64,000 bases of DNA from an uncultured Actinomycetota bacterium. Lineage in GTDB: Bacteria > Actinomycetota > Actinomycetes > Actinomycetales > Microbacteriaceae. Positions 2 through 62,827 of this stretch are shown here, one piece after another. The translations under genes and the position numbers were made by a program. The stretch spans positions 48,291 through 112,290 of the forward strand of contig CAVOIQ010000004.1 of assembly GCA_963696085.1 (NCBI GenBank), read 5' to 3'. The stretch's first letter is position 1. Each line of letters begins with the position of its first letter. The notes under the pieces are model-generated. The model was not told where the DNA came from. It did no database searches and saw only the letters and a list, made by a program, of their open reading frames with translations.

Positions 2-88
2 GACACCGCCTGCGGCGGCGCGGCTCCGGCCGCCCAGGAGCTCGACGCCGACGCCCCGCGAACGGTGACGATCACGCGGCATCCGTAG
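2..88 (+). CDS. 3' end of an upstream gene (partial), possibly TsaE
   Basis: Open frame DTACGGAAPAAQELDADAPRTVTITRHP* runs from the window edge. The TsaE guess rests only on the usual tsaE-tsaB-rimI-tsaD synteny. Confidence 0.4.
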   Translation, partial: DTACGGAAPAAQELDADAPRTVTITRHP

Positions 89-107
89 CCGCCCCGCCCC
101 GCCCCGC

Positions 108-320
108 GGCCCGCGAGGGGTCGCGATCGGCGGTGTTGCGGTGCGAGAACCCCGCGCTCGGCCCGCGAGGGGTCGCGATCGGCGGTGTTGCGCTGCGAGA
201 ACCCCGCGCTTCGCGACCCCTCGCGGGGATGCGGCCGGCGATGACGAGCGTCTGCGCCGCGAGGGGTCGCGTTCGGCGGTGTTGCGGCGACGGATGCCGC
301 ACATTGCGACCCTTCGCGAG
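108..320. repeat. REP-like palindromic repeat cluster
   Basis: Two tandem 52-bp units (108-159, 160-211, near-identical). An inverted copy TCGCGACCCCTCGCGGG (211-227) pairs with 162-178. A third degenerate unit and hairpin lies at 257-319. Confidence 0.8.
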
Positions 321-423
321 CAGCGCGATCGCGGATTCGTGAGTTGGTCTCCCTGCCGTCCCGGGATGCCGGGGCGGGAGCATCTGGAGTGCCGACCTCA
401 TCGAACCGACTGGAGCATCCGTC

Positions 424-1169
424 ATGTCCCACGCAACGTCCCGCACCGCCGACACCGTTTCCGCGAAGCCAGCGCCCGGCACACGAGCCCGCGACCTCCA
501 CGTCGCCGCGCGCGCCGCGCTCATCGCCGCCATCATCTGGCTGATCGAACCGATCTTGTTCGCCCTGACTCTCACGAACCCCGACAACATGCGCATGGAT
601 CAGACGCTCGAGGAATTCCGTGCGGCGAACTGGATCGGCATCCTCGCTGGTCCGGCGTACATCGCCCTCGGCGTGACCTTGGCCGTCATGCTCCTCGCCA
701 TCTCGCGTGTTCAGCGAGTCGCGCAGCGACCGCGGATACGCGAGCGTGATCGCGTACGGGCTCGGAATCCTCGCCGCAGCCGCGCTCGTCGTCGCCGGAG
801 CGATCGGTCTCACCGGCGACGGGCTGGCGGGGATGGCCCTCACCATGATCCCTGATGCCTCGGAGGGTGCGAGATGGCTCGCCCACCAGTCGTTCATGGT
901 CGTGCACGAGGCTTTCCGACTCACCGCCTGCCTGGGGTTCGCGGCGTGGCTGATCGTCTTCTCCCGCACGGGCCGACGGACAGGACTCATCGGGCGGGGT
1001 GTCGCCGTAACGATCGTCATCGCAGCCGTGCTCATCGCTCTTCCGGGTGCCGTCGACCGGACTGCTGACCGGCATGAACTTCATCCTGCTGGCCCTCATC
1101 CCGCTCGCCGTCGCATTCTCCCGGCGGGCGAAGGCCGCCGCCAGCGCGGACGACACGCAGGAACAGTAG
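424..1169 (+). pseudogene. Multi-pass membrane protein (DUF4386-like) broken by two apparent +1 frameshifts
   Basis: The hydrophobic reading continues across frames: 424 frame to ~705, the 707 frame (VFSESRS...ALP) to ~1047, then a third frame VPSTGLLTGMNFILLALIPLAVAF...QEQ* ending at 1169. Confidence 0.7.
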
Positions 1170-1203
1170 CCGCCGCATCCGTCTCACTGTCACAATCACA
1201 GCC

Positions 1204-3081
1204 ATGGACGACGTCCTACTCGCGGCGAGCCGCCTCACCCTCCTGATCGTGGGGGTGGGCGGCTCCGTCGCGGTGGTCGTGGCCGCCGCGCGACGTCGGG
1301 TCGGCCGCGGATGGGTGCCGGCGCTGGCCGCGTCGTCGATTCTGCTTTCGTTCGCCGGGAGTTTGACAGGATCGACCCTCATCCCGGAGCAGCTCTCCCT
1401 CATTCCTTGGTTCGTCGGATTCCCGTTGCTGGCCGCCACCTTTCCCGACGGCCGTTTCGTGCCGCGGTGGTCATGGCTGATCGCCGCCGGATCCGTCGTC
1501 GCCCTAGCCGCCAATGCGATCTCGGGCGATGCGTGGCGACAGAGCACTGCGTGGTTTCTCTTCCCGGTCACTCAACTCGTGTTGTGCGTCGCCGTCATCA
1601 TCTACCGCTACCGCCGCAGCGCGACCACTTCGGAACGCGAAAGCGTCCGCTGGGTGCTGCTGGGAACCCTCATGACCGTCGCCGCGTTCATGGCGATCGC
1701 TGCCAATGGGGAGGTCATCGGCGGCCCGGGCGCGCTCTCCGAAGCGAAGGCGAACGCAGCGGGCATCCCTTTGATGCTCGGTCTCGTGATCGGGCTCGCC
1801 GCGCCGCGGATCTGGAATGTGGATGCTGCGTTCCGCGCGGTCCTCGTGGTGCTGGGGGCCGGGTGGGCCCTGGCGGGCGTGTACGCCGGAACGCGCGCGT
1901 TGGCGCACGCTGCCGGTGTGGGTTCCGATGGCGCGGGGTGGGCTGCCGCTGCTGTGGCGATCGCCGCCTACCCGATCATCCGACTGGCGATGCGCGCGGC
2001 GACCTGGCTGGTGTACCGAGACCGTCTGAGCCCGGAGGCCGCGGTCGCGCGGCTGGCGGCAGGCCTCGAAGCCGACGATCCGCGCAGCATGGCACTGCGC
2101 GTGGTCGAAGCGGCACGCGAGTCGACCGGGTCGCCCGCGGTATCGCTGGAGCCAGTCGATGCCGCGGATGCGGGAGTGTTCACGGCTGCATCGGGTGCGA
2201 TCGACTCCGAGGGAGTCGGCGCCGACTTCCCCGTCATCCTCCGTGGCGAACTGCTCGCGCGACTCCACGCGACGCCACGCGCAGGAGAGTCCGAGCTCAG
2301 CAAGAGAGATCGGGCGACCCTCACCGCGATCGCCCAGCACGCCGCCCCCGCGCTGCACGGCGCACGTGCCTTCATCGAGGCCACGGATGCGCAGGCGGCG
2401 CTCGTCTCCGCGCGCGAGGAAGAGCGGCGGCGCTTGCGACGCGAGCTCCATGACGACCTCGGTCCCGCGCTCTCCGGCCTCGCGTTGGGCGCGGCCGCCA
2501 TCGCGAAGCGCGCGGATGCCGGAGCGCCAGAACTCGCGGCATCCGCTCGGGAACTGCAGGCGGACATCGGGGATGCCGTCGAACGCGCTCGGCAGATTTC
2601 GCATGGGCTGCGCCCGCCGGTGCTCGATGACCGCGGGCTCGCCGCCGCGCTCCGAGATCGGCTGGGCGATGACGTGGTGTGGGAGATCGATGAGTTGGGT
2701 GACCTTCCCGCAGCTGTCGACCTCGCGGCGTTGCGCATCGTGCAGGAGGCCGTGACGAACACGCGCCGGCACGCTGCGGCCTCGGTCTGCCGGGTGCGGG
2801 CCCAGTGCGACCAGGCCGGGCTTCGTATCGAGATCTTCGACGACGGGGTGGGGATACCGAAGGGAGTCACCCCGGGCCTTGGGCTGAGGTCGATCCGTGA
2901 GCGGGCTGCCGAGTTGGGCGGACGCGCCCGGGTATCGCGGGCAGAGGGTGGTGGGACCCTTGTCAGCGTGTGGCTGCCGATCGTCGCGAACGCACCCGAC
3001 CTCGAGAACGCCACCGTAGCCGCACCTGTCGAGACCGCGACCGATAATGCCCCGGCTGATGCGGTTGAGGTGTCATCGTGA
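1204..3081 (+). CDS. Membrane sensor histidine kinase (HisKA_3/NarX-like)
   Basis: N-terminal TM helices; H-box RRELHDDLGP; N-box EAVTNTRRHA; DDGVG and GLGLRSIRERA motifs. Confidence 0.92.
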   Translation: MDDVLLAASRLTLLIVGVGGSVAVVVAAARRRVGRGWVPALAASSILLSFAGSLTGSTLIPEQLSLIPWFVGFPLLAATFPDGRFVPRWSWLIAAGSVVALAANAISGDAWRQSTAWFLFPVTQLVLCVAVIIYRYRRSATTSERESVRWVLLGTLMTVAAFMAIAANGEVIGGPGALSEAKANAAGIPLMLGLVIGLAAPRIWNVDAAFRAVLVVLGAGWALAGVYAGTRALAHAAGVGSDGAGWAAAAVAIAAYPIIRLAMRAATWLVYRDRLSPEAAVARLAAGLEADDPRSMALRVVEAARESTGSPAVSLEPVDAADAGVFTAASGAIDSEGVGADFPVILRGELLARLHATPRAGESELSKRDRATLTAIAQHAAPALHGARAFIEATDAQAALVSAREEERRRLRRELHDDLGPALSGLALGAAAIAKRADAGAPELAASARELQADIGDAVERARQISHGLRPPVLDDRGLAAALRDRLGDDVVWEIDELGDLPAAVDLAALRIVQEAVTNTRRHAAASVCRVRAQCDQAGLRIEIFDDGVGIPKGVTPGLGLRSIRERAAELGGRARVSRAEGGGTLVSVWLPIVANAPDLENATVAAPVETATDNAPADAVEVSS

Positions 3082-3692
3082 TCCGCGTCATCGTGGTCGA
3101 TGACCACCCGGTCTTCCGCAAAGGGCTCGTCGCGCTGCTTCGGGCGAGCGACGTGGAGGTCGTGGGTGAGGCGGCAAATGGGCTCGAGGCGATCGCGGTC
3201 GCCGCGGACCTCCTGCCGGACGTCGTGCTGATGGATGTCGCCATGCCCGAGCTCGGCGGGCTCGAAGCGACCGAACGGATCGTTGCCGAACATCCGTTGG
3301 TGCGCGTGGTCGTGGTGACCCTCTTCGACGACGAAGCCACCGTGCTGCGCGCGCTTCGCGCCGGCGCGAGCGGCTACGTCACGAAGCAGGCGAGCCCGGA
3401 GCAGATTCTGGCGGCGGTGGAGGCGGCATCAGCCGGCGCGTTGATGATCGGCGCCGGCGTACCGCGCCCGCTCGCAGGGCTGGCGGAGTCCGGCGGCATC
3501 GAAGGGCTCACGCCGCGAGAACAATCGGTGGCGGATCTGCTCGGCCGAGGGCTGGCAAACCCTGCGATCGCGGAGCGGTTGTTCCTCTCGACCAAAACAG
3601 TCGCCAACTACGTGTCCATCGTCATGCTGAAGCTGGGTGCGTCCGATCGTGCCGAGGCCGCGCGGCTGATTCGGGCACGCAGGGAAGCGTGA
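3078..3692 (+). CDS. NarL/LuxR-family response regulator
   Basis: Receiver VVDDHPVFR, DVVLMD, GYVTK; HTH LTPREQSVADLLGRGLANPAIAERLFLSTKTVANYVS; GTGA overlap with the kinase. Confidence 0.95.
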   Translation: MIRVIVVDDHPVFRKGLVALLRASDVEVVGEAANGLEAIAVAADLLPDVVLMDVAMPELGGLEATERIVAEHPLVRVVVVTLFDDEATVLRALRAGASGYVTKQASPEQILAAVEAASAGALMIGAGVPRPLAGLAESGGIEGLTPREQSVADLLGRGLANPAIAERLFLSTKTVANYVSIVMLKLGASDRAEAARLIRARREA

Positions 3693-3716
3693 CCGGTCGG
3701 CGACTACCCTAGAGGC

Positions 3717-4364
3717 GTGATCCTCGGCATCGACACCTCGATCGGCACGGCTGTGGCCGTCGTCGACCTTGACGGAACGGTGCGCGCTGATGTCGCGAGT
3801 CCGGATGCCCGTGGGCATGCCGAGGTCATCGGCACATTGATCGAGCGGGCGCTCGCCGAGGCCGGGGTGCGACCGACCGACATCCGATATGTCGCTGCCG
3901 GTATGGGCCCCGGACCCTTCACCGGTCTTCGCGTCGGCATCGCTGCGGCGCGAGCGTTTGCACTGGGGCGGGGCATCCCGGTCATATCTGTCGTCAGCCA
4001 CGATGCCGCCGCTCTCGATCGCACTGCTCTCGACGGTACGGGCGACGCGCCTTTCGCGATCGTCACCGATGCCCGCCGCCGCGAAGTTGCGTTCTCGATC
4101 TACCGCGCCGACACGGGCCGCGAATCGCCCCAGCGCCTCGCGGGCCCCGAACTCGCGCTCAAGGGCACGGATATCACGGCAGCCGGGATGGACTTCCCTG
4201 CCGCGGAGATCGTCGAGACGACCACCATCAGCGCCGCCGCGCTCGCCCGCGTTGCCGCGCGTCGAATCGCGACGGGGGAGAGCGACCCCGCGGCATCCGA
4301 TCCCCTCTATCTGCGCGTGCCGGACGTCACCCCCTCCAACGGACCCAAGAGGGTGGGCACGTGA
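3717..4364 (+). CDS. tsaB: t6A biosynthesis protein TsaB
   Basis: ILGIDTS start, GHAEVI, GMGPGPFTGLRVG, DARRREV; leaderless -10 TACCCT at 3705-3710. Confidence 0.95.
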   Translation: MILGIDTSIGTAVAVVDLDGTVRADVASPDARGHAEVIGTLIERALAEAGVRPTDIRYVAAGMGPGPFTGLRVGIAAARAFALGRGIPVISVVSHDAAALDRTALDGTGDAPFAIVTDARRREVAFSIYRADTGRESPQRLAGPELALKGTDITAAGMDFPAAEIVETTTISAAALARVAARRIATGESDPAASDPLYLRVPDVTPSNGPKRVGT

Positions 4365-4873
4365 GCCTCCGCACCGCGACACCGGCCGACCTCGCCGCGA
4401 TCATGGACCTCGAGCGCGCATCGTTTCCGACGGATGCCTGGAGCGACGCGATGATGGCAGAAGAACTGCGCTCACCGCACGGCCGCTACGTGATTCTCGA
4501 AGAGACCGGCCGCGTGCTCGGCTACGGGGGAGTGCGAGCGCCGCAGAATGCTCCGGATGCCGACATCCAGACGATCGCGATCGCCGAGGCGGCGCGCGGA
4601 CGTGGCCGTGGACGCGAGTTGCTCCGGTCGCTGCTGACCGAAGCTGCCCAGCGCGGTGCTCGTGAGGTGTTCCTCGAGGTGCGTGCCGACAACCCGACCG
4701 CGCAGGCGCTGTACGCCTCGGAGGGCTTCGTCGACGTCGGGCGCCGTCCGCGCTACTACCAACCCGATGACGTCGACGCGGTGGTGATGAAGCTGGATCT
4801 CGCAAGTTGGACATCCGCGCGTGCCCTTCCTCGAATGGATGGCGCCGCGACTGACGCGGGGGCGTGCACATGA
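4361..4873 (+). CDS. rimI: Ribosomal protein S18 alanine N-acetyltransferase (GNAT)
   Basis: [15 protein letters not shown]...[10 protein letters not shown]; position between tsaB and tsaD. Confidence 0.92.
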
Positions 4874-5925
4874 ACCGCACCGAACCCCTGGTGCTGGGGA
4901 TCGAGACGAGCTGCGACGAGACCGGAATCGGAATCGTGCGCGGCCGGACGCTCCTGTCCAACACGATCGCGTCGTCGATGGACGAGCACGCTCGCTACGG
5001 CGGGGTGATTCCCGAAATCGCGGCGCGCGCACACCTCGAAGCGTTGCAGCCCGCCATCGAGGCCGCTGTCGCCGAGGCCGGCGTGCAATTGACCGACCTC
5101 GACGCGATCGCCGTCACGAGCGGTCCCGGGCTCGCCGGCGCGCTCATGGTCGGCATCGGTGCCGCGAAGGCACTCGCCGTCTCGCTGGAAAAGCCGCTCT
5201 ACGCCGTCAACCACCTCGTCGGGCACATCGCCGCAGACCTCCTCACCGGCGAGGACGTCGAATATCCGACAGTGGCGCTGCTCGTCAGCGGTGGACATAC
5301 CTCGCTGCTGCTCGTACGCGACTTGGTCTCGGATGTCGAGCTTCTCGGTGAAACCATGGACGACGCTGCCGGCGAGGCGTTCGACAAGATCGCGCGAATC
5401 CTCGGCCTTCCCTACCCCGGCGGGCCGGAGATCGACCGGGCCGCGGCATCCGGCGACCCTCGGGCGATCCGGTTCCCACGCGGAATGTCTCGGGCGTCGG
5501 ACATGGCTGAGCACCGCTACGACTTCTCCTTCTCCGGCCTGAAAACCGCCGTCGCCCGCTGGTGCGAGCAGCGCGAGGCCGCGGGGGAGTCCGTGCCGAT
5601 TGCGGATGTCGCGGCATCCTTCCGCGAGGCGGTCGTGGACGTGCTCGTCACGAAAGCCCTCGACGCGTGCGCTCGCCACGATGTGCCGCGCCTCCTCCTG
5701 GGCGGCGGCGTCATCGCCAACCGCAGGCTCCGCGACGTTGCCCTCGAGCGTGGCGCGGCCGCCGGAGTCGCCGTGCGCATCCCGCCCCTGTCGCTGTGCA
5801 CCGACAACGGGGCGATGATCGCCGGGCTCGCCGCCGAACTGATCGCCAGCGGCCGCGAGCCCTCCACGCTCGAGTTCGGTGCGGATTCGACCCTGCCGGT
5901 CACCGAAATCCAGGTGATCCGATGA
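4870..5925 (+). CDS. tsaD: t6A transferase TsaD
   Basis: [62 protein letters not shown]. Confidence 0.97.
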
Positions 5926-6503
5926 GCGACGAGCAGATTTCCCGGCCGCGCTCGCGCCGCGAAGCCAGCAGTCCGACCGAGGCAGGCGAACGGGACGAAC
6001 ACGGCGCCGTCGCACCCCCGGTTCCCGGGAAGACGGATGCCGCTTCTGCCGATGCAGCGGCCCCTGTCGCTCTCCCCACCACACCACCTGGTGCGTCACA
6101 CACGTCGGTCGAGAAACCCTCTGACGACGTGGCGACGGTGGGCGAGGCATCGAGCATGCCCGGTGAACACCGTGGCGGATTCCAGCGCGCGCTGACCGCG
6201 CCCGTGCCGATCACGGAGTCCGTGCACGTTCCCGTGGAGTGGGCCCCCGCCCCGCCTCGCCCCCTGCCGCGCATCGCGCCCTGGGCTCTGGGTCTGGCCA
6301 TCGTCGGGCTCTGCCTTTCGCTGATCGTCGGCTGGGCGTTTCCGCTCGGGATCGCTGCATTCGTGATGGCGATCGTCGCCCTGCGACGCCCGTGGGAGAG
6401 CCGGTCGGCCGCGGTGTGGGCACTGATGCTGGGGCTCCTGTCCCTCGTCTACAGCGCCGGATGGCTCTGGTGGGCCGCTTACCAGGCACATCTCCTGCCC
6501 TGA
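5922..6503 (+). CDS. Hypothetical membrane protein (Pro/Ala-rich N-terminus, C-terminal TM helices; DUF4190-like)
   Basis: ATG 5922 overlaps the tsaD stop; low-complexity N-terminus followed by hydrophobic segments. Confidence 0.7.
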
Positions 6504-6556
6504 ATCGCTCGGACGGGCGGGCGGTCGGACGGACGGGCGGGCGCGCGCGGCAGCAG

Positions 6557-7921: not shown

Positions 7922-8218
7922 GTGTCGGTTTCCATCAAGCCACTCGAGGACCGCATCGTCATCAAGCAGGTCGAAGCTGAGCAGACCACCGCGAGTGGCC
8001 TGGTCATCCCGGACACCGCGAAGGAAAAGCCCCAGGAGGGCGAGGTCTTCGCTGTCGGACCCGGTCGCATCGACGACAACGGCAACCGCGTTCCGCTCGA
8101 CGTTGCCGTCGGCGACAAGGTGATCTACAGCAAGTACGGCGGCACCGAGGTCAAGTTCGGCGGCGAGGACTACCTCGTTCTGTCCGCGCGCGACGTGCTC
8201 GCTGTCGTCGTTCGCTGA
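7922..8218 (+). CDS. groES: Co-chaperonin GroES
   Basis: IKPLEDRIV...[18 protein letters not shown]...[10 protein letters not shown]. Confidence 0.99.
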
Positions 8219-9414: not shown

Positions 9415-10678
9415 ATGAACGTCTCTACACGTTCTCGCGCAGGAAAGATCATCGTCGGCATCGCCGCGATGGGAATCAGCGCAGTCGTCCTGGCCGGTTG
9501 CTCAGGCAGCTCGACCTCCACGGAGTCAAGCGCCGCCGCCGCACCGGCCGCAGAGGACCTCACCCTCAAGATCGGCACGGTCCTTCCCCAGACCGGTAGC
9601 CTCGCCTTCCTCGGCCCGCCCGAAGAAGCCGGCGTTCAGCTTGCTATCAACGAGGTCAACGAGGCTGCGGCCGGCGTGACCATCGATGCAACCTTCGGCG
9701 ACTCGGGTGACGCGGACAACAAGGCCTTCGAGACGACCGTCCCGAAGCTGCAGAGCGAAGGCGTCTCCGCCATGATCGGTGCGGCCTCCTCGGGCGTCAC
9801 CAAGCTCTTCCTCGACAGCAACGTCTCCGAGGGCATCATCACGTTCTCCCCGGCGAACACCTCGCCCGACTTCACGACGTGGGAAGACGACAACCTCTAC
9901 TGGCGTACCGCCCCCAGCGACCTGCTCCAGGGCGAGGTCCTCGCCAACCAGGTTGCCGAGGATGGCCACAAGAACATCGCCGTCCTGTACCAGAACGACG
10001 CCTACGGCACCGGCCTCTTCGGCGTTGTCAAGGAGGTCTTCGAGGCCTCCGGCGGCACCGTCGTCGCAGACGCCTCGTACAACGATGGTGACTCCTCCTT
10101 CGATGCTCAGGTCGCGACCCTCACGGCGTCGAACCCTGACGCGATCGTGCTCATCACGTTCGACCAGCTGGCGACCATCGCTCCGCTGCTCGTGAACGCG
10201 GGACAGTCGGCCGAAGAACTTCTACCTCGTCGACGGAAACCTCAAGCAGTGGGGTACCGACGTCAGCGTCAGCCTCGAAGGCGCCAAGGGCACGACGCCC
10301 GGACCGGTGCTTTCGGATGACTTCCAGGAGCGCCTGAACGCGGCCTGGGTCGCCGAAGGCAACGCCGACCTCGAGGACCTCAGCTACGCAGGCGAGTCCT
10401 ACGACGCCGTCGTGCTGCTCGCGCTCGCATCGCTCGCGGCGGGTTCGACCGATTCGGCCGACATCGCGGCGAAGCTGCAGGAAGTCTCCGGCGGTTCCGG
10501 TGACGGTGAGAAGTGCACCACGTTCGCGGACTGCGCCGAGATCATCACCGGCGGCGGCACGGCCGACTACGACGGCTACTCCGGTGGCGTTGCATTCGAC
10601 GACGCTGGCGACCCGACCGAGGCCACCATCGGTGTCTTCCAGTACGACGCCGACAACAAGTTCACGCGCATCAACTAA
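9415..10678 (+). pseudogene. Branched-chain amino acid ABC substrate-binding lipoprotein with one apparent +1 frameshift
   Basis: Lipobox VLAGC. Removing one base at ~10213-10216 gives ...GQSAENFYLVDGNLKQWG... in frame with the 10307..10678 ORF. Codon usage is strongly GC3-biased. Confidence 0.85.
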
Positions 10679-15118: not shown

Positions 15119-16834
<1,716 letters not shown>

Positions 16835-43993: not shown

Positions 43994-46435
43994 ATGACCG
44001 ACGCCTCCCAGCCCCTGATCGTCGGCGGCGACCGCGGACCCGAAACGCGCCCCGATGCCGACCTGCTCGAGGGCCTGAATCCACCGCAGCGCACCGCCGT
44101 CACCTATCGCGGACCCGCCCTGCTGATCGTTGCCGGCGCCGGATCGGGTAAGACCCGCGTCCTGACGCATCGCATCGCCTCCCTCCTGCGCGGACGTGAG
44201 GCATGGCCCAGCCAGATCCTCGCCATCACCTTCACCAACAAGGCCGCAGGCGAGATGCGCGAACGCGTTCAGCACCTGATCGGCGACAGCGCGCAGGGCA
44301 TGTGGATTTCGACGTTCCACTCCGCGTGCGTACGAATCCTCCGCCGTGAAGCGCAGCAGTTCGGCTTCACGAAGAGCTTCACGATCTACGACTCGGGCGA
44401 TTCGCGTGCGCTGATCAAACGGTTGGTGAAGGAGCACGAAGCGGATGCCTTCGGTCTCACGCCAGCGGGCGTGCAGAGTCGCATCTCGAAGCTGAAGAAC
44501 GAACTGGCGGATGCCGAGTCCTACGCGCGCCAGGCCAATATGTCCGACCCGGCGGAGCGCATCTTCGTCGAGATTTTCGCCGATTATCAGCGCGCGCTCC
44601 AGCGGGCGAATGCCTTCGACTTCGACGACCTCATCGCGCAGACCGTTTACCTCTTCCGCGCGTTCCCGCACGTCGCGAACGTCTATCGCCGCCGGTTTCG
44701 ACACGTCCTCGTCGACGAATACCAGGACACGAACCATGCGCAATACTCGCTGATCCACGAACTGACCCGCCCCGTCGTGGGGGAGACGGCCGAGCCGTTC
44801 GAATCCGGCGGGATGATGATCTTCGAGCCGGAGCGTGCTCCCGAACTGGACGCCGCGTCGCTCACCGTCGTCGGCGACTCCGATCAATCCATCTACGCGT
44901 TCCGCGGCGCCGACATCCGTAACATCACGGAGTTCGAACGCGACTACCCCGGCGCGAAGGTCGTGCTGCTCGAGCAGAATTACCGCTCGACGCAGAACAT
45001 CCTCTCGGCGGCGAACGCCGTGATCGGCAACAACTTCGACCGCAAAGACAAGAAGCTGTGGACCGACGTGGGAGCGGGCGACCCGATCGTCGGGTTCACC
45101 GGGTACTCGCAGCACGATGAGGCACAGTTCGTCGCGGATGAGATCGAGGCGCTGCGACGCACCGGGATGGCCTACTCGGAGATGTCGGTGTTCTACCGCA
45201 CCAACTCGCAGTCGCGGGCGCTGGAGGAGATCTTCATTCGCTCGGCCCTGCCCTACAAGATCATGGGCGGCACGAAGTTCTACGATCGCGCAGAGATCAA
45301 GGACGCGTTGGCGTACCTCGTCGCCATCTCGAACCCCGCCGACGAGATGGCGGTCCGGCGGATTCTGAACAAGCCCCGCCGCGGCATCGGCGATGTGACC
45401 GAGACGGCGATCGCCCGTTACGCCGCCGACGAGGGCATCACCTTCCGCGACGCGCTCGCGAACGCACCGTCGCTCGGCGTCGGGCAGAAGATTCAGACGG
45501 CGATCACGCGGCTCGACGCGGTGCTCGCAGAAGCCGCCGCGATCATGCTCCCCGAGTCCGGCGAGCTCGCCCCACCGACCGCCGTGGCAGAGGGACTCAC
45601 GCTGCTGCTGAATAAGAGCGGCTATCTCGAGGCGCTCCGGGCGAGCAAAGACCCGCAGGACGAAGCACGGCTGGAGAACCTCGACGAACTCGTCGCGGTG
45701 ACCCGCGAGTTCGCGCGCAACAACCCCGAAGGCACGATCCTCGACTTCCTCACCGAGGTCGCGCTCGTCTCCGACGCCGACGATCTCGAGAGCGATTCAG
45801 GCTTCGTGTCGCTGATGACGATGCACACCGCGAAAGGGCTCGAATACGATGCCGTGTTCGTCACCGGCGTCGAAGAGGACCTCATCCCGCACCGCATCTC
45901 GGCGGGCGAGCCCGGCGGACCTCAGGAAGAGCGGCGACTGTTCTATGTTGCGCTGACCCGCGCGCGCAAGCGCCTGTACCTGTCGCTTGCCATGACACGG
46001 GCGCAGTTCGGTGAAGTGACCGTGGCGATGCCCAGCCGGTTCTTGCAGGAGATTCCGCACGAGCTCATCGACTGGCGGCAGTCACCCGGCGACGTCAATT
46101 CGCGTGGCGGAATGCAGTCCCGCGCTCTCAATGCACGTCGCTCCGGTGGCTTCGGTGGGGGATCGACGAACCGATACGGTGACGATCTCGTGCCGCTCCC
46201 GCGCCGCGAGAAGAGCGGATCGATCGAGAAGTTCGCGAACCGGATTCCCGCGAAAGTACGCGACAACGGTGACATGGAATTGGCATCGGGCGACCGCATC
46301 CGCCATGACGATTTCGGCGATGGGCGCGTCGACGCCGTCACCGGCGAGGGCGCCAAGCGCGTGGCACATGTGCGTTTCGACAAGGTGGGCGCGAAGAAGC
46401 TGCTCATCAAGATCGCACCCATCCAGAAGATCTGA
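43994..46435 (+). CDS. pcrA: UvrD/PcrA SF1 helicase
   Basis: AGAGSGKT, ITFTNKAA, DEYQDTN, GDSDQSIY, NYRST, TMHTAKGLE, EERRLFYVALTRA, C-terminal Tudor-like tail. Confidence 0.97.
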   Translation: MTDASQPLIVGGDRGPETRPDADLLEGLNPPQRTAVTYRGPALLIVAGAGSGKTRVLTHRIASLLRGREAWPSQILAITFTNKAAGEMRERVQHLIGDSAQGMWISTFHSACVRILRREAQQFGFTKSFTIYDSGDSRALIKRLVKEHEADAFGLTPAGVQSRISKLKNELADAESYARQANMSDPAERIFVEIFADYQRALQRANAFDFDDLIAQTVYLFRAFPHVANVYRRRFRHVLVDEYQDTNHAQYSLIHELTRPVVGETAEPFESGGMMIFEPERAPELDAASLTVVGDSDQSIYAFRGADIRNITEFERDYPGAKVVLLEQNYRSTQNILSAANAVIGNNFDRKDKKLWTDVGAGDPIVGFTGYSQHDEAQFVADEIEALRRTGMAYSEMSVFYRTNSQSRALEEIFIRSALPYKIMGGTKFYDRAEIKDALAYLVAISNPADEMAVRRILNKPRRGIGDVTETAIARYAADEGITFRDALANAPSLGVGQKIQTAITRLDAVLAEAAAIMLPESGELAPPTAVAEGLTLLLNKSGYLEALRASKDPQDEARLENLDELVAVTREFARNNPEGTILDFLTEVALVSDADDLESDSGFVSLMTMHTAKGLEYDAVFVTGVEEDLIPHRISAGEPGGPQEERRLFYVALTRARKRLYLSLAMTRAQFGEVTVAMPSRFLQEIPHELIDWRQSPGDVNSRGGMQSRALNARRSGGFGGGSTNRYGDDLVPLPRREKSGSIEKFANRIPAKVRDNGDMELASGDRIRHDDFGDGRVDAVTGEGAKRVAHVRFDKVGAKKLLIKIAPIQKI

Positions 46436-53268: not shown

Positions 53269-53405
53269 GGTCGACCAAAGCCTAGACCGGGGTGGGACGT
53301 GACAGAGCGGTCCTGGCCGGATAGTAGGCTGGATAACTGGCCGATATCTTGACGTCAAGATTCTTTTCGGCCTTACCCCCACAGTCGCCCAGCGAAGGAT
53401 TGCAC

Positions 53406-54572
53406 GTGGATCTCTACGAGTACCAGGCACGAGACCTATTCGAGAAGCATGGGGTGCCGGTACTTGCCGGCATCATTGCCGACACTCCTGAGGAGGCGAA
53501 GGCAGCGGCCGAGAAGATCGGCGGCGTGGTCGTCGTCAAGGCTCAGGTCAAAGTCGGAGGCCGCGGCAAAGCCGGCGGCGTCAAGGTCGCCAAGACCGCC
53601 GACGAGGCATACGAAGCAGCGAAGGCCATCCTCGGCCTCGACATCAAGGGACACGTCGTTCAGCGCGTCATGGTGGCTGCCGGAGCCGACATCAAAGAGG
53701 AGTTCTACTTCTCGGTGCTGTTGGACCGGTCGAACCGCTCCTACCTCTCGCTGTGCTCCGTCGAGGGTGGTGTTGAGATCGAGCAGCTGGCGGTCGAGAA
53801 GCCCGAGGCACTCGCACGCATCGAGGTGAACCCGCTGACGGGTATCGATGCCGCCAAGGCGCTCGAGATCGCCAAGGCCGGCGGCTTCGACGACGAACTG
53901 GCCGCGAAGGTCGCCCCCGTCTTCGTCAAGCTCTACGACGTCTACAAGAACGAGGGCGCGACCCTCGTCGAGGTCAACCCCCTCGTCCTCACCGGTTCCG
54001 GCGACATCATCGCCCTCGACGGCAAGGTCACGCTCGACGAGAACGCGAGCGAAGTTCGCCACCCCGAGCACGAAGCGCTCGAGGACAAGGGCGCCGCAGA
54101 TCCGCTCGAGGCGAAGGCCAAGGCATCCGGTCTGAACTACGTCAAGCTCGACGGCCAGGTCGGCGTCATCGGAAACGGTGCGGGACTGGTCATGTCCACC
54201 CTCGACGTCGTCGCGTACGCGGGGGAGAAGCACGGCGGAGTGAAGCCGGCGAACTTCCTCGACATCGGCGGCGGAGCGTCAGCGACCGTCATGGCCGCAG
54301 GCCTCGACGTCATCCTCGGCGACGAGCAGGTCAAGTCGGTCTTCGTGAACGTCTTCGGCGGCATCACGTCGTGCGTCGCCGTTGCGGACGGCATCGTCAA
54401 GGCCCTCGAAATCCTCGGCGACAGCGCCACCAAGCCGCTCGTCGTGCGCCTCGACGGCAACCAGGTCGAAGAGGGTCGCGCGATCCTCGCCGCAGCCAAC
54501 AACCCCCTCGTCACCCTCGCCGCCAGCATGGACGACGGCGCCGACAAGGCCGCCGAGCTGGCGAACGCCTGA
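53406..54572 (+). CDS. sucC: Succinyl-CoA synthetase beta subunit
   Basis: [45 protein letters not shown]. Confidence 0.98.
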
Positions 54573-55499
<927 letters not shown>

Positions 55500-55526: not shown

Positions 55527-55556
55527 AGGGGACGGATGCTGCGGCATCCGTCCCCT
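55527..55556 (+). terminator. Terminator after sucD
   Basis: Perfect 13-bp stem AGGGGACGGATGC-TGCG-GCATCCGTCCCCT followed by a T-rich tract. Confidence 0.85.
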
Positions 55557-55624
55557 TCGTCGTTCTTCCTCGACTTCGGGCAGGGGTTCGCCGCACGCTC
55601 GATCAGGCGTCATAGGGTGGAAGC

Positions 55625-56065: not shown

Positions 56066-56100
56066 CGACCGCGATACTGACGAGCGCGCGCCCGTCGGAA

Positions 56101-57567
56101 CTACCCGCCGAGCAGCGTTTCGATGGGCCCGCGCCCGAAGTACACCGCAAATCCAGCCGCGACGACCCAGAGCAGTGGGCTGATGTCCCGCGCCTTGCCG
56201 GACAGCGACCGGACGATGACCCAGCTGATGAACCCGGCGCCGATGCCGTTGGCGATCGAGTACGTCAGAGGCATCACCGTGATCGTGAGGAAGACCGGGA
56301 TGAGCGCCGAGACGTCGGAGAGTTCCACGTAGCGGATCTGCGCCATCATCAGCGCGCCCACGATCACCAACGCCGATGCGGCGATCTCGGTCGGCACGAT
56401 CGTCGTCAGCGGCGTGAAGAACATCGCGAGCAGGAACAGAGCGCCGGTCACGAGGTTCGCGAGGCCCGTGCGGGCGCCTTCGCCGATGCCGGCACCCGAC
56501 TCGATGAAGACCGTGTTCGACGAGGACGAGGTGAAGCCACCTGCGACGGCGCCGATGCCCTCGACGACGAGCGCCGATCGGAGACGCGGGAAGTTGCCCT
56601 TGTCGTCCGCCAACTCTGCTTCGCGCGAGAGCCCGGTCAGCGTCCCCATCGCGTCGAAGAAGTTCGTGAACAGGAGCGTGAAGACGAGCATCGTGGCGGC
56701 GAGCACGCCGATGCGCTCGAACGAGCCGAAGCTGATCTGTCCGACCAGGCTCAGATCGGGGAAGCTCACCCACTGCTCCGGAAGTTCGGGGACGGTGAGG
56801 CCCCACCCCCCGGGGTTGAGGGTGCCGTCGTCGCCGAATTTGGGCCCGATGTGCCAGATCGCCTCGACGATGACCGAGACCACGGTGCCGGTGACGAGTC
56901 CGATGAGGATCGCGCCCTTGACCTTGCGCGCCATGAGCACGGCAGTCAGCAGCAACGTGAAAACGAACAGCAGAGTCGGGACGGTGGCGATGGAGCCGGC
57001 GATACCGAGACCGACCGGAGGTGACGATTCTCCGGTGGCGGTCACGAACCCGCTGTCGACGAAGCCGATGAAGGCGATGAACAGGCCGATGCCCACGGTG
57101 ATCGCCGTCTTCAGCGCCATCGGAACGGCGTCGAAGATGAGACGGCGGAGCCCTGTGACGGCCAACAGCACGATGAGCAGGCCGTTGATGACGACGAGCC
57201 CCATGGCTTCGGCCCACGTCACCTGGCCGACGACCGCCACGGCGAGGAACGAGTTGATGCCCAGGCCCGCCGCGAACGCGAACGGCAGACGTGCCACCAG
57301 CCCGAACAGAATCGTCATCGCTCCGGCGGTCAACGCGGTCGACGCGGCGACGGCGGCGAAGGGCAACTGGCCGCCCTCGACGTCGACGGCACCCGACAGG
57401 ATGATCGGATTCAAGATCACGATGTACGCCATCGCGACGAAGGTGACGAGACCACCGCGGACTTCGCCGCCGATCGTAGAGCCACGCCTCGAGATGTCGA
57501 AGAAGCGATCGATCGCGTTCTTCGGCTGAGTGTCGGGCTGAGCGTCCGTAGGGGCTGTGCTGGTCAT
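56101..57567 (-). CDS. NCS2/AzgA-family purine permease
   Basis: EVRGGLVTFVAMAYI, AAGLGINSF, NFFDAMGT, FIESGAGIGEGARTGLA; SD AAGGAGG before ATG 57567. Confidence 0.93.
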   Translation of the reverse strand: MTSTAPTDAQPDTQPKNAIDRFFDISRRGSTIGGEVRGGLVTFVAMAYIVILNPIILSGAVDVEGGQLPFAAVAASTALTAGAMTILFGLVARLPFAFAAGLGINSFLAVAVVGQVTWAEAMGLVVINGLLIVLLAVTGLRRLIFDAVPMALKTAITVGIGLFIAFIGFVDSGFVTATGESSPPVGLGIAGSIATVPTLLFVFTLLLTAVLMARKVKGAILIGLVTGTVVSVIVEAIWHIGPKFGDDGTLNPGGWGLTVPELPEQWVSFPDLSLVGQISFGSFERIGVLAATMLVFTLLFTNFFDAMGTLTGLSREAELADDKGNFPRLRSALVVEGIGAVAGGFTSSSSNTVFIESGAGIGEGARTGLANLVTGALFLLAMFFTPLTTIVPTEIAASALVIVGALMMAQIRYVELSDVSALIPVFLTITVMPLTYSIANGIGAGFISWVIVRSLSGKARDISPLLWVVAAGFAVYFGRGPIETLLGG

Positions 57568-57648
57568 GATTCCTCCTTGGACGACGCTAGCGGTCACATG
57601 GTGCGCCTCGCATCACCCTCCCGTTCGGCTAGGTAGGGTCGATGGGGC

Positions 57649-59100
57649 ATGAATCGCCTTATCGTCGCCCTCCTCGCCGCCTTCGACGCCATCATCGTCG
57701 TCGCGACCGGCCTCGCCGCCGTCCTTGCTCCGCTCACGATCCTGTGGGTGCTCAACCTCGGACCCGGCGCGGTGTGGAGTGCCCTGTGGCCGACGACCGC
57801 GAAGATCTGGCAGCTCGGACACCTGGTGCCCATCGAGGTCACCCTCCCCGCGGACTACCTCGCGGCCACCGGCATCCCCGCCGATGCCAGCACCTTCGTG
57901 CTTTCGCTCGCACCCTTGGCGTTCGCGGGTTTCACCGCGATCTTCGCCGCGCGTTCGGGCGCTCGCGCGGCCCGCGCCGGCGCGTGGGGCACCGGCGTGG
58001 GCGCGGGTACCGTGACGTTCGCCGCCCTCACCGTGGCCCTGTACCTCACCTCGCAGACCGACCTCGCGGTCGTCACGCAGTGGCAGGCGCTCCTGCTGCC
58101 GGTTCTGGTGTTCGCGCTGCCCGCCCTCGTCGGTGGCATCGTGGGCGCGTGGCGCCTCGGCGACGACGGGCTCATCGACGGCATCCGGGAACGCGCTGAC
58201 GACCACCCGCACTGGCGTGGCGTCCCCGAAGGCATTGCGGTGGGCGCCGGCATCACTCTCGCGGGCACCGTGGGGCTGGGAGCGCTCGCGCTCACGGTCG
58301 GACTCGTCACCCGCGGCACGGAAGTCATCGCGCTGTTCGAGGCCGCGCACGTCGATGTGCTCGGCGCCGTCGTGCTGACGATCGGTCAGCTCGCCTATCT
58401 GCCGACAGTCGTCGTGTGGGGAGCGGCATTCGTCGCCGGGCCGGGGTTCGCGGTCGGCCAGGCGACCACCGTGTCACCGGCGGGCACCAACCTCGGTATC
58501 GTCCCCGGCGTGCCGATCCTCGGCGTCATTCCCGAATCGGGCAGCGCATGGCTGCTGCTCCTCGTGCTTCTGGTCGTCGGTCTTGGCGTGCTGGCCGGGC
58601 TGGCCGCGCGCGCACGGCTCCTGCGGCAGGGGAGGGACGAGCGGATGCTTCCGCGCCTCATCGTGCTTGCGGGCATCGTGATCCTCAGCGCCGGCGGCGC
58701 GGCTCTGCTCGCCGTTCTCGCCTCGGGCTCGCTCGGTCCCGGCCGACTGGACACCCTCGGCCCCGAGCCAGGCCCGTTCGCATTGGCGGTCGCCGCAGAG
58801 GTCGCCGTCGGCGCGGCGATCGTCTTGCTGACACCCCGCGGTGGGCCGCATCCTGTTGCTGAATCGGGATTGGGTGCCGTCGAAGAGTGGCCTGCTCCGG
58901 ACGCCCCGCGGGATCTCGCCCCCGCGCCATACCTGGCTGCTGCGTCGGCACAGGGACCGGAACCGGTGACGGATCCCGACCTGCAGCCCACAGAACCCAT
59001 CGACGCCGGGTTCCTCGCCGCGCCCTCCGCCAGCCGGTCCGGCGAGACTCCTCCCGACGAGACGGACCCCGAAGTGCCCGACGGGTCGCGGGTAGAGTAG
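57649..59100 (+). CDS. DUF6350/PerM-like multi-pass membrane protein
   Basis: ~10 TM segments, [25 protein letters not shown]; conserved position upstream of purN. Confidence 0.8.
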
Positions 59101-59104
59101 GACA

Positions 59105-59710
59105 GTGCTCACGGTCGCCGTTCTCATCTCGGGCGCGGGGTCAAACATGCGTGCCCTGCTCGAGGCCGCGAGCGACCCGCATTACCCGGCACGAATCATC
59201 GTCGTCGGCGCCGACCGACAGGCCGACGGATTCGAGCACGCGGAAGCCTTCGGCATCCCGACGTTCATGGTTCCGTTCCACGAGTACGAGACTCGCGAGC
59301 ACTGGGGCGAAGAACTGCAACGCCAACTCGAGGTGTGGAATCCCGACCTCATCGTGCTCAGCGGTCTGATGCGCCTCCTCCCGCCGGCCGTCGTCGATGC
59401 CTGGTCTCCGAACCTCATCAACACGCACCCCGCGTTCCTGCCCGAGTTCCCCGGCGCACACGGCGTGCGCGATGCGCTCGCCGCCGGCGTCGCCCAGACC
59501 GGTGCCAGCGTGATCGTCGTCGACAACGGCATCGATTCGGGTCCGGTCCTCGCCCAGGAGCGCATCGCGGTGCACCCCGGCGACGACGCACACTCCCTGC
59601 ACGAGCGCATCAAACCCGTTGAGCGCCGACTGCTGATCGATGTCGTCCGTCGCATCGCAACCGGCGATCTCGCACTGAACACCGTCTCAGACCCCTCTCA
59701 CAGACACTGA
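59105..59710 (+). CDS. purN: Phosphoribosylglycinamide formyltransferase
   Basis: [31 protein letters not shown]. Confidence 0.97.
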
Positions 59711-59726
59711 ACCACCAGGAGCTTCA

Positions 59727-61331
59727 ATGGCCGGCCCCAGCATCGACCCTGCCCTTTACCGTCACCGCGACCTCGTCCCGGTGCGGCGGGCACTCGTCTC
59801 CGTCAGCGACAAGACCGACCTGCTGCCGCTGGCACAGGCCCTCGCCGAGGCGGGCGTCGAGATCGTCTCCACCGGCGGATCCGCGGCGCTTCTGCGCGAC
59901 GCGGGCCTGACGGTGACCGACGTCGCCGAGGTCACCGGCTTCCCTGAGTCGCTCGGCGGTCGTGTCAAGACGCTCCACCCGAGCGTCCACGCCGGACTCC
60001 TCGCTGACCTGCGCCTCGAAGACCACGAGCTTCAGCTCGGTGGCCTCGGCATCGAGCCCTTCGAACTCGTCGTCGTCAACCTGTACCCCTTTGCTGAAAC
60101 TGTGGCCTCGGGTGCCGAGGGCGACGCCGTGGTCGAGCAGATCGACATCGGCGGACCGGCGATGGTCCGCGCCTCTGCGAAGAACTTCGCCAACGTGGCC
60201 ATCGTCGTCTCCCCGACCTCCTACCCCGCCATCATCGACTCCGTCCGTGCGGGCGGCACCACGCTGTCGCAGCGCCGTGATCTCGCCGCGCGGGCCTTTG
60301 CCCACACGTGCGAATACGACCGCGCGGTCGCCACCTGGTTCGTCGAGGAATCGCTCGCCGGCGACGACCTGCCGCGGCATCTGACCATCAAGGCAGAGCG
60401 CCTCGCTACCCTCCGCTACGGCGAGAACTCGCACCAGCGCGCGGCGATCTACACGCGCATCGGCGGCCACGGCATCGCTCAAGCCGAGCAGCTTCAGGGC
60501 AAGGAGATGTCGTACAACAACTACGTCGACGCGGATGCCGCTCTGCGGGCAGCATTCGACATGGTCAAGCCCGCTGTCGCGATCATCAAGCACGCCAACC
60601 CCTGCGGGATCGCGGTCGGAGCGCCGCAAGCCCTCGACCCGATCGCCTCCGCGCACCTGCGCGCTCACGAGTGCGATCCGGTCTCGGCGTTCGGCGGCGT
60701 GATCGCCGCCAACCGCACCATCACTCTGAAGATGGCGGAGAATCTCCGCGATATCTTCACCGAGGTCATCGTCGCGCCGGACTTCGAGCCCGCAGCGCTC
60801 GAGGTCTTCAAGCTGAAGAAGAACCTGCGTGTGCTGCGCCTGCCTGCCGACTGGCGCCAGGAGCAGATGGATGTGCGGCTCGTGTCCGGCGGTCTTCTGC
60901 TGCAGGATGCCGACCGCTTCCCCGACGACATCGAGTCGGTGGCGGCAAACTGGCAACTCGTCTCGGGCGAGCGTCCCGATCCGTCCGAACTCGAGGGCAT
61001 GATCTTCGCGTGGAAAGCCTGCCGTGCGGTGAAGTCCAACGCCATCGTCCTCGCGCGCGGCTCTGCCACCGTCGGCATCGGCATGGGTCAGGTCAACCGG
61101 GTCGACTCCTGCCGACTCGCGGTCGAACGCGCCGGCGATCGCGCCGCCGGATCGGTCGCGGCATCCGACGCCTTCTTCCCGTTCGCCGACGGCCCACAGG
61201 TGCTGATCGACGCCGGCATCCGCACGATCATCCAGCCCGGTGGATCCGTGCGTGACCAGGAAGTCATCGACGCCGCCCGCGAGGCCGGCGTGACGATGTT
61301 CTTCACCGGTGAGCGCCACTTCTTCCATTGA
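59727..61331 (+). CDS. purH: AICAR transformylase/IMP cyclohydrolase
   Basis: [59 protein letters not shown]. Confidence 0.98.
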
Positions 61332-61453
61332 TCCGGACGTCGACCGGCACGAAGGCGCGCATGGGCACTGCTGCCCATCGCGGGTGAGTACGACGTCGGT
61401 TAGGTTTACGGAACCTGGTTGAAGGTCTGTGCGGATGGAGAGAAACGGCTGCG

Positions 61454-62827
61454 ATGACTGATTCTGGACCCAAGATCTGGGAGATCGACGAGTCGACCCC
61501 CGAGATCGAGGGGCTGGATCGCTCAGGGCGACCCCGACCCGAGTATGCGGCGTCGTTGGGTCTTCTTCCGGCGCCGCTCGGGCGACGCTCGTTGGCCACG
61601 CTCATCGAAGTCGCGGTGGTGGTGTTGTTGCTGCTCCCACTGCTCCTGGTGGCCCTGCCGGCCATTCTCACCGCGGCGCAGACGCCTGAGAATCTGCAGG
61701 CAGAACTGCTCGGCCGCAGCGATCTGCTGCTCATCATCATCTGCACGCTCGCGTCGTATGTCCTCGTCATCGCGTTCATCGTCGTCCAGCTGATCCTCCA
61801 TGGACGGAAGGGCGTGACGTTGGGAAAGGCCGTCGTCGGCATCCGTTCGGTCAACGTGCGCACGCTGGCGCGGCCGAAGTTCTGGCGTGGAGCGATCGTT
61901 CGCTATCTCGTGCTGTGGGGGAGCTTCCTGATTCCCCTGATCGGACCGCTTCTGGTCATCGCGCTGTCACCGCTGTTCGACCCGCAGCGACGGGGCCGAG
62001 GCTGGGCGGATCTCGCCGCGGGGACGTGGCTCGTCGACGCCCGTCGGGGACTGAACCCCTACGACGAGAAGCGGATGCGGATCGCACGCAAGACCGTGGC
62101 GTCGAACCTGAAAGATGAGCGCAGCGCGCTCCCGTCGCTCGCCACGCCGCTCAGTGCGGGCACGCAAGCGGCGTACATCCCGACCGCCCGCAGTCGCGGG
62201 GGAGTGCTCGGTGCGCCGTCCGGGGATGCGACCCCGGCATCCACGCCAGATCCCGCTCTGGTATCCGCATCCGTTGCGGCGTCCGTGCCGCCTGCGCACT
62301 CCGCAATTGCTGGTCCGTCGCTCGCGACCCCCGACCCTGTCCCAACATCGCAACCGGCATCCGATCTCCCTGCCTCGTCACCCGCTGCCGAGTGGGCGCC
62401 CCCGACGCTGTTGCCTTCGGTGCAGGCAGCCCGTGCGCTGCAGCCCGTGCCGGACGTGCAGGATGCGGCGGCCCCGGAAACTCCGGCGCCCGCGGCGCTT
62501 GTCGTCACACTGGTGCTCGATACCGGCGTCACGATCAACGTCGACGGTGCGGGCGTGCTCTTGGGCCGAGCACCGACCGCGGCTGAGGGCGAGAGTGGGC
62601 TGGTGGCGGTCCGGGTTGCGGATCCTTCGATGTCGATATCTAAGACGCACCTCGCTGTGCTCCGATCAGGCGAATCCATCGTCGTCGTCGACCGCGGATC
62701 AACCAACGGCAGCTCCCTGACCAGCGGTGGAACCGAGCGGATTCTCGCGCCCCGCGAGCGCGTGCAGCTCACTGACGGCGATACGATCCGATTCGGAGAC
62801 CGTCATGCCGCGGTCAGAATCGGCTGA
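61454..62827 (+). CDS. RDD-domain membrane protein with Pro/Ala linker and C-terminal FHA domain
   Basis: RDD (LGRRSLATLIE...TLGKAVVGIR...RRGRGWAD); FHA (LLGRAP, ISKTHL, DRGSTNG). Confidence 0.85.
   Translation: MTDSGPKIWEIDESTPEIEGLDRSGRPRPEYAASLGLLPAPLGRRSLATLIEVAVVVLLLLPLLLVALPAILTAAQTPENLQAELLGRSDLLLIIICTLASYVLVIAFIVVQLILHGRKGVTLGKAVVGIRSVNVRTLARPKFWRGAIVRYLVLWGSFLIPLIGPLLVIALSPLFDPQRRGRGWADLAAGTWLVDARRGLNPYDEKRMRIARKTVASNLKDERSALPSLATPLSAGTQAAYIPTARSRGGVLGAPSGDATPASTPDPALVSASVAASVPPAHSAIAGPSLATPDPVPTSQPASDLPASSPAAEWAPPTLLPSVQAARALQPVPDVQDAAAPETPAPAALVVTLVLDTGVTINVDGAGVLLGRAPTAAEGESGLVAVRVADPSMSISKTHLAVLRSGESIVVVDRGSTNGSSLTSGGTERILAPRERVQLTDGDTIRFGDRHAAVRIG

Follow-up and report, generated by a model that had tools for sequence, protein, structure and literature searches.

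An exact, non-palindromic octamer present about once per kilobase in Microbacteriaceae chromosomes, a candidate self-DNA word

Hyper-abundant self-words are known from few groups, among them the DNA uptake sequences (DUS), the uptake signal sequences (USS), Chi and HIP1, and each of them is a handle on how own DNA is told from foreign DNA. The 64,000-nt stretch analysed here (the window; C4:48291-112290 of genome G000, a 3.16-Mb draft of a member of the Microbacteriaceae with 66.5% GC in 10 contigs) raises the question whether the octamer GGATGCCG (complement CGGCATCC) is another such word, and what would read and keep it. A preliminary description of the window had proposed a highly iterated chromosomal signal comparable to uptake sequences, HIP1 or Chi.

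Spelling of the word and its independence from coding

The window has 71 exact copies of GGATGCCG/CGGCATCC on both strands (32 on the plus and 39 on the minus strand). Dinucleotide-preserving shuffles of the window have 7.55 +/- 2.5 copies, and the highest of 100 shuffles has 14; the tally of 65-70 copies in the preliminary description, with about 5 expected, was accurate. The 9-mer CGGATGCCG, in which a 5' C precedes the octamer, accounts for 42 of the window's 71 copies; the shorter GGATGC/GCATCC is present 139 times. In the whole genome, GGATGCCG is the top-ranked of all 8-mers (2,905 copies), and its observed/expected ratio is 12.1 by base composition and 7.8 by a second-order Markov model. 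Its maximal-order Markov ratio, 1.13, carries no information here, as the 7-mers within the word are themselves dominated by it. All 24 one-letter variants drop to 0.7-2.7x, indicating that all eight positions of the word are specified. The sole flank preference is the 5' C (59% of copies; CGGATGCCG has 1,713 copies, 21x), and information content is at background one base beyond the word. The octamer is not a palindrome and differs from its complement, and the self-complementary part of the 9-mer is limited to its 3-nt ends. Genes contain 84% of the copies. A mobile or dispersed repeat of the repetitive extragenic palindrome (REP) or miniature inverted-repeat transposable element (MITE) type was rejected, since there is no longer conserved unit, the flanks are unconserved, and the copies are mostly genic rather than intergenic.

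The excess within genes was compared with a codon-aware null. A simple caller based on GC content at third codon positions (GC3) gave 2,737 genes in G000, covering 85.6% of the genome, and synonymous codons were shuffled within each gene, which preserves the protein sequence and the codon usage of the gene. Genic copies number 2,436, compared with 591 +/- 24 in the shuffles (4.1x), and the enrichment extends to each of the six reading frames, ranging between 2.2x (C GGC ATC C) and 15x (.CG GCA TCC). Genome-wide, the GAT-GCC frame has 983 copies (183 expected) and the.CG GCA TCC frame, which reads Ala-Ser with the rare codon GCA, has 456 (29.5 expected), so the spelling of the word in genes as GAT-GCC or GCA-TCC was rightly recognized in the window and extends to the genome. 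Asp is encoded by GAT in 83% of cases in the context G-GAY-GCC-G, compared with 42% in other GAY-GCC contexts and 31% overall, and G precedes GAT-GCC in 57% but GAC-GCC in 19%. This bias reaches across four codons; therefore, dicodon usage cannot absorb the excess.

Coding DNA has 0.90 copies/kb and non-coding DNA 0.98 copies/kb, the latter ten times the order-2 expectation for non-coding DNA. Across GC3 deciles the density is even, the lowest decile (0.68 copies/kb) being the sole poorer one. The word had been described as scarce in highly codon-biased genes, but the top GC3 decile has 0.89 copies/kb and there is no genome-wide deficit; the word-free groES, sucC, sucD and binding-protein genes of the window are within sampling noise and are not evidence of scarcity. 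Three results rule out a codon, dicodon or dipeptide artefact (the protein-preserving shuffle, the context test and the existence of a congener without the word), and coding or composition is excluded as the source of the GGATGCCG excess. The idea of a highly iterated chromosomal signal is thus borne out, and with it the codon-aware check proposed in the preliminary description: the excess exists at the DNA level and survives in all frames and in non-coding DNA.

Orientation, maintenance and dialects

Plus and minus copies are equal in each 50-kb bin, including regions with 8% or 93% of genes on one strand. No contig is skewed, including across the gene-strand switch on C7, and sense and antisense copies number 1,222 and 1,223 genome-wide. 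Copies are evenly spread along gene length, and the gaps between them are near-exponential (coefficient of variation, CV, 1.08). Replichore or transcription polarity was rejected because strand counts are equal genome-wide, and regular spacing was rejected on the CV, with the orientation-specific effect alone being real. The density and layout are like those of uptake sequences and HIP1, as the preliminary comparison suggested, and the replichore skew of the Chi or KOPS type is absent. The word is unpolarised with respect to replication and transcription, though there is a local alternation of orientation.

Adjacent copies have opposite orientations in 57% of 2,895 pairs (z ~7.5), a share that becomes 56% once pairs less than 100 nt apart are excluded. 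At distances of 100-1250 nt, the ratio of same to opposite pairs is 0.79 for GGATGCCG, compared with 0.94-1.42 for the 40 next commonest non-palindromic 8-mers, and the effect fades by ~1.5-2 kb. Alternation recurs in G017, the richest species of the genus (59% opposite, z 4.1). This local alternation points to a direction-sensitive reader. Head-to-head pairs are a further feature of the layout: genome-wide, there are 78 of them within 48 nt or less, compared with 26-32 for each of the other three arrangements, and they include perfect palindromes of 14 and 16 bp as well as terminator-like hairpins. Between convergent genes, intergenic copies reach a density of 1.26/kb, compared with 0.77/kb between divergent genes.

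Some intergenic regions of G000 have tandem arrays with a 7-bp period, (GGATGCC)3-4, and one +++- cluster lies between convergent genes (C5:190468-190496, C5:199033-199054, C7:727301-727322 and C3:27586-27635). No obvious candidate reader gene lies beside word clusters or tandem arrays in G000, where the flanking genes of the arrays were not annotated.

Within the genus, copies per genome range from ~630 to ~4,970, compared with 150-250 for the reversed-word control. We compared 400 kb each from the richest species (G017) and from a word-poor species (G064) with G000. In G017, GGATGCCG is again the top 8-mer (1.5/kb). G064 has 0.23 copies/kb (1.9x), and no other word stood out in an unbiased census of the same 400 kb. 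In codon alignments of orthologues, 55 of 97 G000 sites (57%) are exact in G017, compared with 16-23% for other 8-mers, and G064 keeps 7 of 76 (9%). Where the amino acid is conserved, G017 retains GAT in 70% of cases inside the word and 17% elsewhere, GCA in 69% and 12%, and GCC in 86% and 48%. Because GAT, GCA and GCC are all retained, the constraint is on the whole word and not on one mutable base. No word-linked codon retention exists in G064.

In a tree of five concatenated proteins, G064 is the sister of G017 and G000 lies outside (support 99/98). Since G064 is nested among word-rich species, its poverty is a secondary loss followed by rapid decay. By these alignments, the word is actively maintained in the word-rich congener, and it can also be lost. 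The same tree places G034, a genome of genus g17 without GGATGCCG, among GGATGCCG-rich genera.

Within the Microbacteriaceae, GGATGCCG is rich in many genera, and in 12 other families it is at ~2x the control. Across 200 Microbacteriaceae genomes, the 9-mer ranges from control level (small genomes; genera g17, g53 and g71) up to 30-50x, and two g77 species differ from each other, with 175 and 28 copies of it. Hits to the 16-bp double word among species-representative genomes came mainly from Microbacterium, Agromyces, Cryobacterium and other Microbacteriaceae. Genus g17 has a different hyper-abundant word, AGGATCCG, with asymmetric flanks around GGATCC (G034, C2:100001-500000). Its 7-nt core AGGATCC has 297 copies in 400 kb (0.74/kb), the top 8-mers with this core are at 12-14x, and CGGATCCT, the complement of AGGATCCG, resembles CGGATGCCG. 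Neighbours of this word in G034 are opposite in 65%, a stronger alternation than in G000. The one-letter variant GTATGCCG is enriched in one of the 24 families of the order (f23). Three f23 genomes have 2,476, 1,376 and 1,251 copies (against 135, 97 and 191, respectively), and one (G298) is without the variant. In 400 kb of the f23 genome G280, GTATGCCG has an observed/expected ratio of 20 and a similar 3' flank.

The word is sparse in foreign DNA. In two lytic phages and one temperate phage of Microbacterium it occurs at 0.35-0.44 copies/kb (3-4x), mostly in the codon-friendly orientation and with no end-facing or positional pattern. A paper on Microbacterium phages reports other motifs only and not GGATGCCG (PMC7302621). 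The longest word-free stretches in G000 are the rRNA operon and a 17-kb island on its lowest-GC contig (C9:31520-48639), which encodes a rhamnosidase, GH1 and GH2 glycosidases, MFS transporters and a uronate isomerase and is probably a recently acquired sugar-utilisation island. In the temperate phage Zeta1847 (MH271320), the palindrome CGAGCTCG occupies 81 sites over 47.9 kb, which is ~4.6x its order-2 expectation, and falls in all three frames. Quhwah and MementoMori, both lytic, have zero copies, with 14 both-strand counts (~7 sites) expected. This contrast between phages could reflect a second iterated word or a difference in restriction avoidance.

Candidate readers and competing explanations

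These data require a sequence-specific process at the DNA level, with recognition of the whole word, sensitivity to orientation over ~1 kb, and a specificity that evolves and can be lost. Our tentative choice, to which we would give somewhat less than an even chance, is that (C)GGATGCCG is a lineage-specific self-DNA word, either uptake-sequence-like or a recombination tag, that is read directionally and kept by biased conversion or selection. The uptake-like reading is ranked first because it is the known process that accounts for the combination seen here (PMC1939737): copies occur in all frames and on either strand without polarity, there are dialects and hairpin pairs, and foreign DNA is poor in the word. 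What we infer beyond the observations is a protein that reads the word, uptake or recombination as the process, and drive rather than selection at each site.

A sequence-specific protein of the DNA-import or recombination machinery would read the whole 8-9-bp word, and word-bearing DNA would be preferentially taken up, recombined or retained, which would lead to about one copy per kb on both strands. A biased reader together with homologous replacement would most likely constitute a molecular drive, possibly helped by selection, as for uptake sequences. Such a drive may write the word into tolerant positions (synonymous sites, conservative replacements, intergenic hairpins) and repair mutated copies. 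With a direction-sensitive reader, a second copy in the same orientation within ~1.2 kb would add little, and alternation would result. Loss of the reader, as in G064, would be followed by a quick decay of copies because many of them are on disfavoured codons, and a shift in reader specificity would give a new dialect, such as AGGATCCG in genus g17 and GTATGCCG in family f23.

The DUS of Neisseriaceae and the USS of Pasteurellaceae have been reviewed and modelled (PMC1939737), and the USS receptor is still merely predicted (PMC12616744). Like them, the word described here is short, exact and asymmetric, occurs about once per kb on both strands, is mostly genic and in several frames, and is denser in 3' intergenic DNA. 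The two kinds of system also share a minority of copies in inverted pairs or hairpins, no strand polarity, lineage-specific one-letter dialects, foreign DNA that is poor in the word, and a pattern that molecular drive can explain. They differ in that the present word is in Actinomycetota, where our literature search found no uptake sequence. It is also shorter (8-9 bp) and without an extended AT-rich flank, its orientation alternates locally, and whole species have lost it. No receptor was found for it among the families compared, and the patchy distribution of type IV pilus machinery does not correlate with the word.

The search for the reader compared the presence and absence of candidate families between word-rich and word-poor or word-free genomes. 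Supporting machinery is encoded in G000, including a comEA-comEC operon, DprA and Tad-type ATPases, and equally so in word-free genomes. The operon has an ordinary leuS-comEA-comEC-holA arrangement, and ComEA is of ordinary SLBB+HHH_3 build. No ComP-type receptor was pinpointed in the ComEA and PilB/PilT checks, which did not extend to small pilins. ATPases of the T2SSE family do not track word density, and NucS is in all compared genomes, word-rich or word-poor.

Several points weigh against an uptake-like or recombination word. None of the candidate families compared tracks the word, and no reader gene was found among them. ComEC is intact in word-rich, word-poor and word-free genomes alike, DprA and Tad-type ATPases are also in word-poor and word-free genomes, and type IV PilB/PilT are in 6 of 22 congeners, patchily and uncorrelated with density. 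The link of word frequency to methyltransferase or competence genes that the preliminary description had proposed to check does not appear: three methyltransferase families, ComEC, DprA and the pilus ATPases do not track it. Natural transformation and biased uptake are not known from the Microbacteriaceae. Uptake by H. influenzae is independent of the orientation of the uptake sequence (PMC1939737); therefore, the local alternation found here is not an expected trait of uptake sequences. Phages are at 3-4x, compared with ~2x in word-free genomes. Sites are mostly unshared between genera, with 2-11 sites per genome comparable, and drive and direct selection would look the same in sequence data.

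The strongest alternative is a Chi-like control word for the AdnAB helicase-nuclease, RecBCD being absent, which we consider possible although rather doubtful. At a two-ended break, the nuclease would read one strand of the word and switch from degradation to RecA loading, and selection would keep an oriented copy every 1-2 kb in both directions. Chi of RecBCD and AddAB is likewise an asymmetric word (5-8 nt), several-fold over-represented, and a mark of own DNA read by a machine that moves along DNA (PMC8022716, PMC5041463). A reader that moves along DNA would explain the orientation-aware spacing. The asymmetric 8-nt spelling, an over-representation like that of E. coli Chi, the ~1.2-kb range of the orientation effect, whole-word retention at synonymous sites (which fits selection) and the poverty of foreign DNA are all consistent with such a word. 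Among 26 Microbacteriaceae and four f23 genomes tested, RecC (PF04257) is present solely in G298, the word-free f23 genome; the three word-rich f23 genomes and all of the Microbacteriaceae lack it. Adjacent AdnA/AdnB-like genes, encoding ~1,100 aa each, are present everywhere tested (C1:80378-86961 in G000).

The co-orientation of GGATGCCG with replication or gene strand is zero, whereas every characterised Chi of which we are aware is skewed to the leading strand. Its density is ~4x that of E. coli Chi, the phage copies are without an end-facing arrangement, and an excess of head-to-head hairpin pairs is not a Chi trait. AdnAB, the sole candidate enzyme here, has no known Chi, and our literature search found none. 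AdnAB-type genes occur also where the word is absent, as they are intact both in word-free G064 and in G034 with its different word. In one AdnAB-like subunit, an insertion splits the nuclease domain of G003, G004, G007, G008, G010, G014, G064 and G227, and the domain is uninterrupted in some congeners; these two forms do not follow word density. Stops in the second AdnAB-like gene of G000 proved to be apparent only, since the profile match ran beyond the true stop codon.

It is unlikely that the word is the binding site of an abundant chromosome-organising protein (nucleoid-associated or condensin-loading), in which many weak sites would be selected for even coverage. The uniform density in genes, between genes and along genes agrees with this explanation, as does the exact-word specificity with a sequence-specific binder; head-to-head pairs could be dimer sites, and dialects would track changes in a recognition helix. 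Against it, each of ~3,000 sites would be under very weak selection, whereas 70% of rare codons are retained. Spacing is near random (CV 1.08) rather than regular, and a whole species lost the word without replacement. We know of no actinobacterial chromosome-organising protein with an asymmetric 8-bp site at this density. The skewed octamers read by FtsK, KOPS, are also asymmetric 8-bp words and are read by a translocase, but they are defined by a strong replichore skew that is lacking here (PMC3384302). The set of FtsK, EccC and a third FtsK-like gene is identical in word-rich and word-poor genomes, and FtsK/TraB-type translocases do not track the word.

A bias driven by methylation or repair (HIP1-like orphan methylases or very-short-patch repair), in which mutation pressure builds the word, is far less probable. 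The central T could stem from CpG deamination of GGACGCCG; GGATG and GCATC, which we take to be recognition sites of known type IIS systems, also count in its favour, as does one N6_N4 methyltransferase conserved in the genus. None of the three methyltransferase families tested tracks the word, however. The N6_N4 family (PF01555) is in all five genomes tested, rich and poor, the N6_Mtase family (PF02384) is in word-poor G064 alone among the five, and the C5 family (PF00145) is absent from G017 and G012. The methyltransferase-driven bias suggested in the preliminary description is thus not supported, as the richest genome, G017, is without C5 and N6_Mtase enzymes and N6_N4 is found in rich and poor genomes alike. 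The constraint extends beyond the T (GCC retention; eight specific positions), flanks are adjusted too, and GGACGCCG is not depleted (636 copies, observed/expected 1.2). A single-site CpG-deamination hotspot that converts GGACGCCG to GGATGCCG was therefore rejected, since other synonymous positions are retained, the source is undepleted and the richest genomes are without a C5 methylase. The sole C5 DNA methyltransferase gene of G000 (C8:12093-13129) is broken by a TGA stop.

HIP1 (GCGATCGC) and other cyanobacterial palindromes resemble the word in being hyper-abundant octamers in all frames, with orthologous sites conserved beyond neutral expectation and loss in some lineages (PMC4390886, PMC5861425, PMC13756078). 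The function of HIP1 is unsettled, with a recent link to gene transfer and transformation (PMC4390886, PMC5861425, PMC13756078). The palindromic HIP1 includes the sites of two orphan methylases, whereas GGATGCCG is non-palindromic and three methyltransferase families do not track it. HIP1 is reported to be quasi-periodic, whereas spacing here is near random save for the orientation effect.

There is next to no chance that the word is a by-product of composition, of codon or dipeptide usage, or of mobile-repeat copies: the low maximal-order ratio, the preferred codons of the C GGC ATC C frame and the ~2x level even in word-free genomes speak for it, but every frame is enriched over the synonymous shuffle (2,436 observed, 591 shuffled), non-coding DNA is 10x enriched, flanks are unconserved, a congener with like coding habits is without the word, and rare-codon retention is word-specific.

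Returning to the self-DNA word, we lean, with slightly better than even confidence, to the broader view that the Microbacteriaceae and, with a one-letter dialect, family f23 have an undescribed DNA self-recognition system. It would have a direction-sensitive reader in import or break repair, thousands of maintained copies, a specificity that shifts between genera, and the possibility of outright loss. Our literature search found no description of the exact word, of uptake sequences in Actinobacteria or Microbacterium, or of Chi for AdnAB. The site and codon retention figures, the nested loss in G064, the g17 word, the controlled alternation test and the negative gene correlations are what the present analysis adds.

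The Microbacteriaceae, a large and widespread actinobacterial family with members from soil, plants and clinical sources, offer a clean case of a self-word. Should the word serve DNA import, it would represent the first system of the uptake-sequence type outside Proteobacteria; should it serve break repair, AdnAB would have its first Chi-type word. The sister pair G017 and G064, the g17 spelling and the dialect of a second family are natural contrasts that should make it possible to find the reader through comparative genomics and to test it in culturable Microbacterium. HIP1 improved transformation tools for cyanobacteria (bioRxiv 10.1101/2024.09.10.611283), and the present word could likewise improve genetic tools for these bacteria. 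It also serves as a marker of recently acquired DNA and as a strong taxonomic signature for metagenome binning.

Copies in the window's genes

The names given to the window's genes in the preliminary description (tsaB, tsaD, groES, binding protein, guaB, UvrD/PcrA helicase, sucC, sucD and purH) are supported by Pfam. Most of its coordinates for the copies hold, and a few were off by 10-20 bases: the guaB copies start at 16060 and 16417 rather than 16040 and 16437, and one purH copy is at 61159 rather than 61150. The copies, and the genes without any, are as follows.

77..62362, both strands: all 71 copies of GGATGCCG, ~1.1 per kb, the last at 62355-62362
2514..2544, plus strand: head-to-head pair (GGATGCCG at 2514, CGGCATCC at 2537) in a histidine-kinase gene (1204-3078; Pfam HisKA_3/HATPase_c)
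2571-2578: third copy near the histidine-kinase pair
4291..4298, minus strand: copy in tsaB, with the gene reading.CG GCA TCC (Ala-Ser, rare GCA)
5444-5451 and 5612-5619, minus strand: two copies in tsaD, both in the GCA-TCC frame
16060-16067 and 16417-16424, plus strand: two copies in guaB, both ..G GAT GCC G.. (Asp-Ala, minor GAT codon)
44509..44516, plus strand: copy in the UvrD/PcrA-type helicase gene (43994-46432), in the GAT-GCC frame
60533..61221: four copies in purH (60533 and 60905 plus, 61159 and 61214 minus), in three different frames
Starts 77, 292, 364, 6035, 8267, 10841, 28309, 30319, 33615, 38975, 43894 and 55542: twelve copies outside called genes
7922..8215 (plus strand), 9415-10317, 53349-54569 and 54597-55496: word-free genes groES, binding protein, sucC and sucD

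The head-to-head pair in the histidine-kinase gene folds into a strong hairpin (2508-2550, -27.2 kcal/mol, z -3.4). Beyond the last copy, an open frame of 1,508 aa begins at 62855 and runs past the end of the window (C4:111145-115668); its FtsK-type domains are EccC-like, as in type VII secretion.

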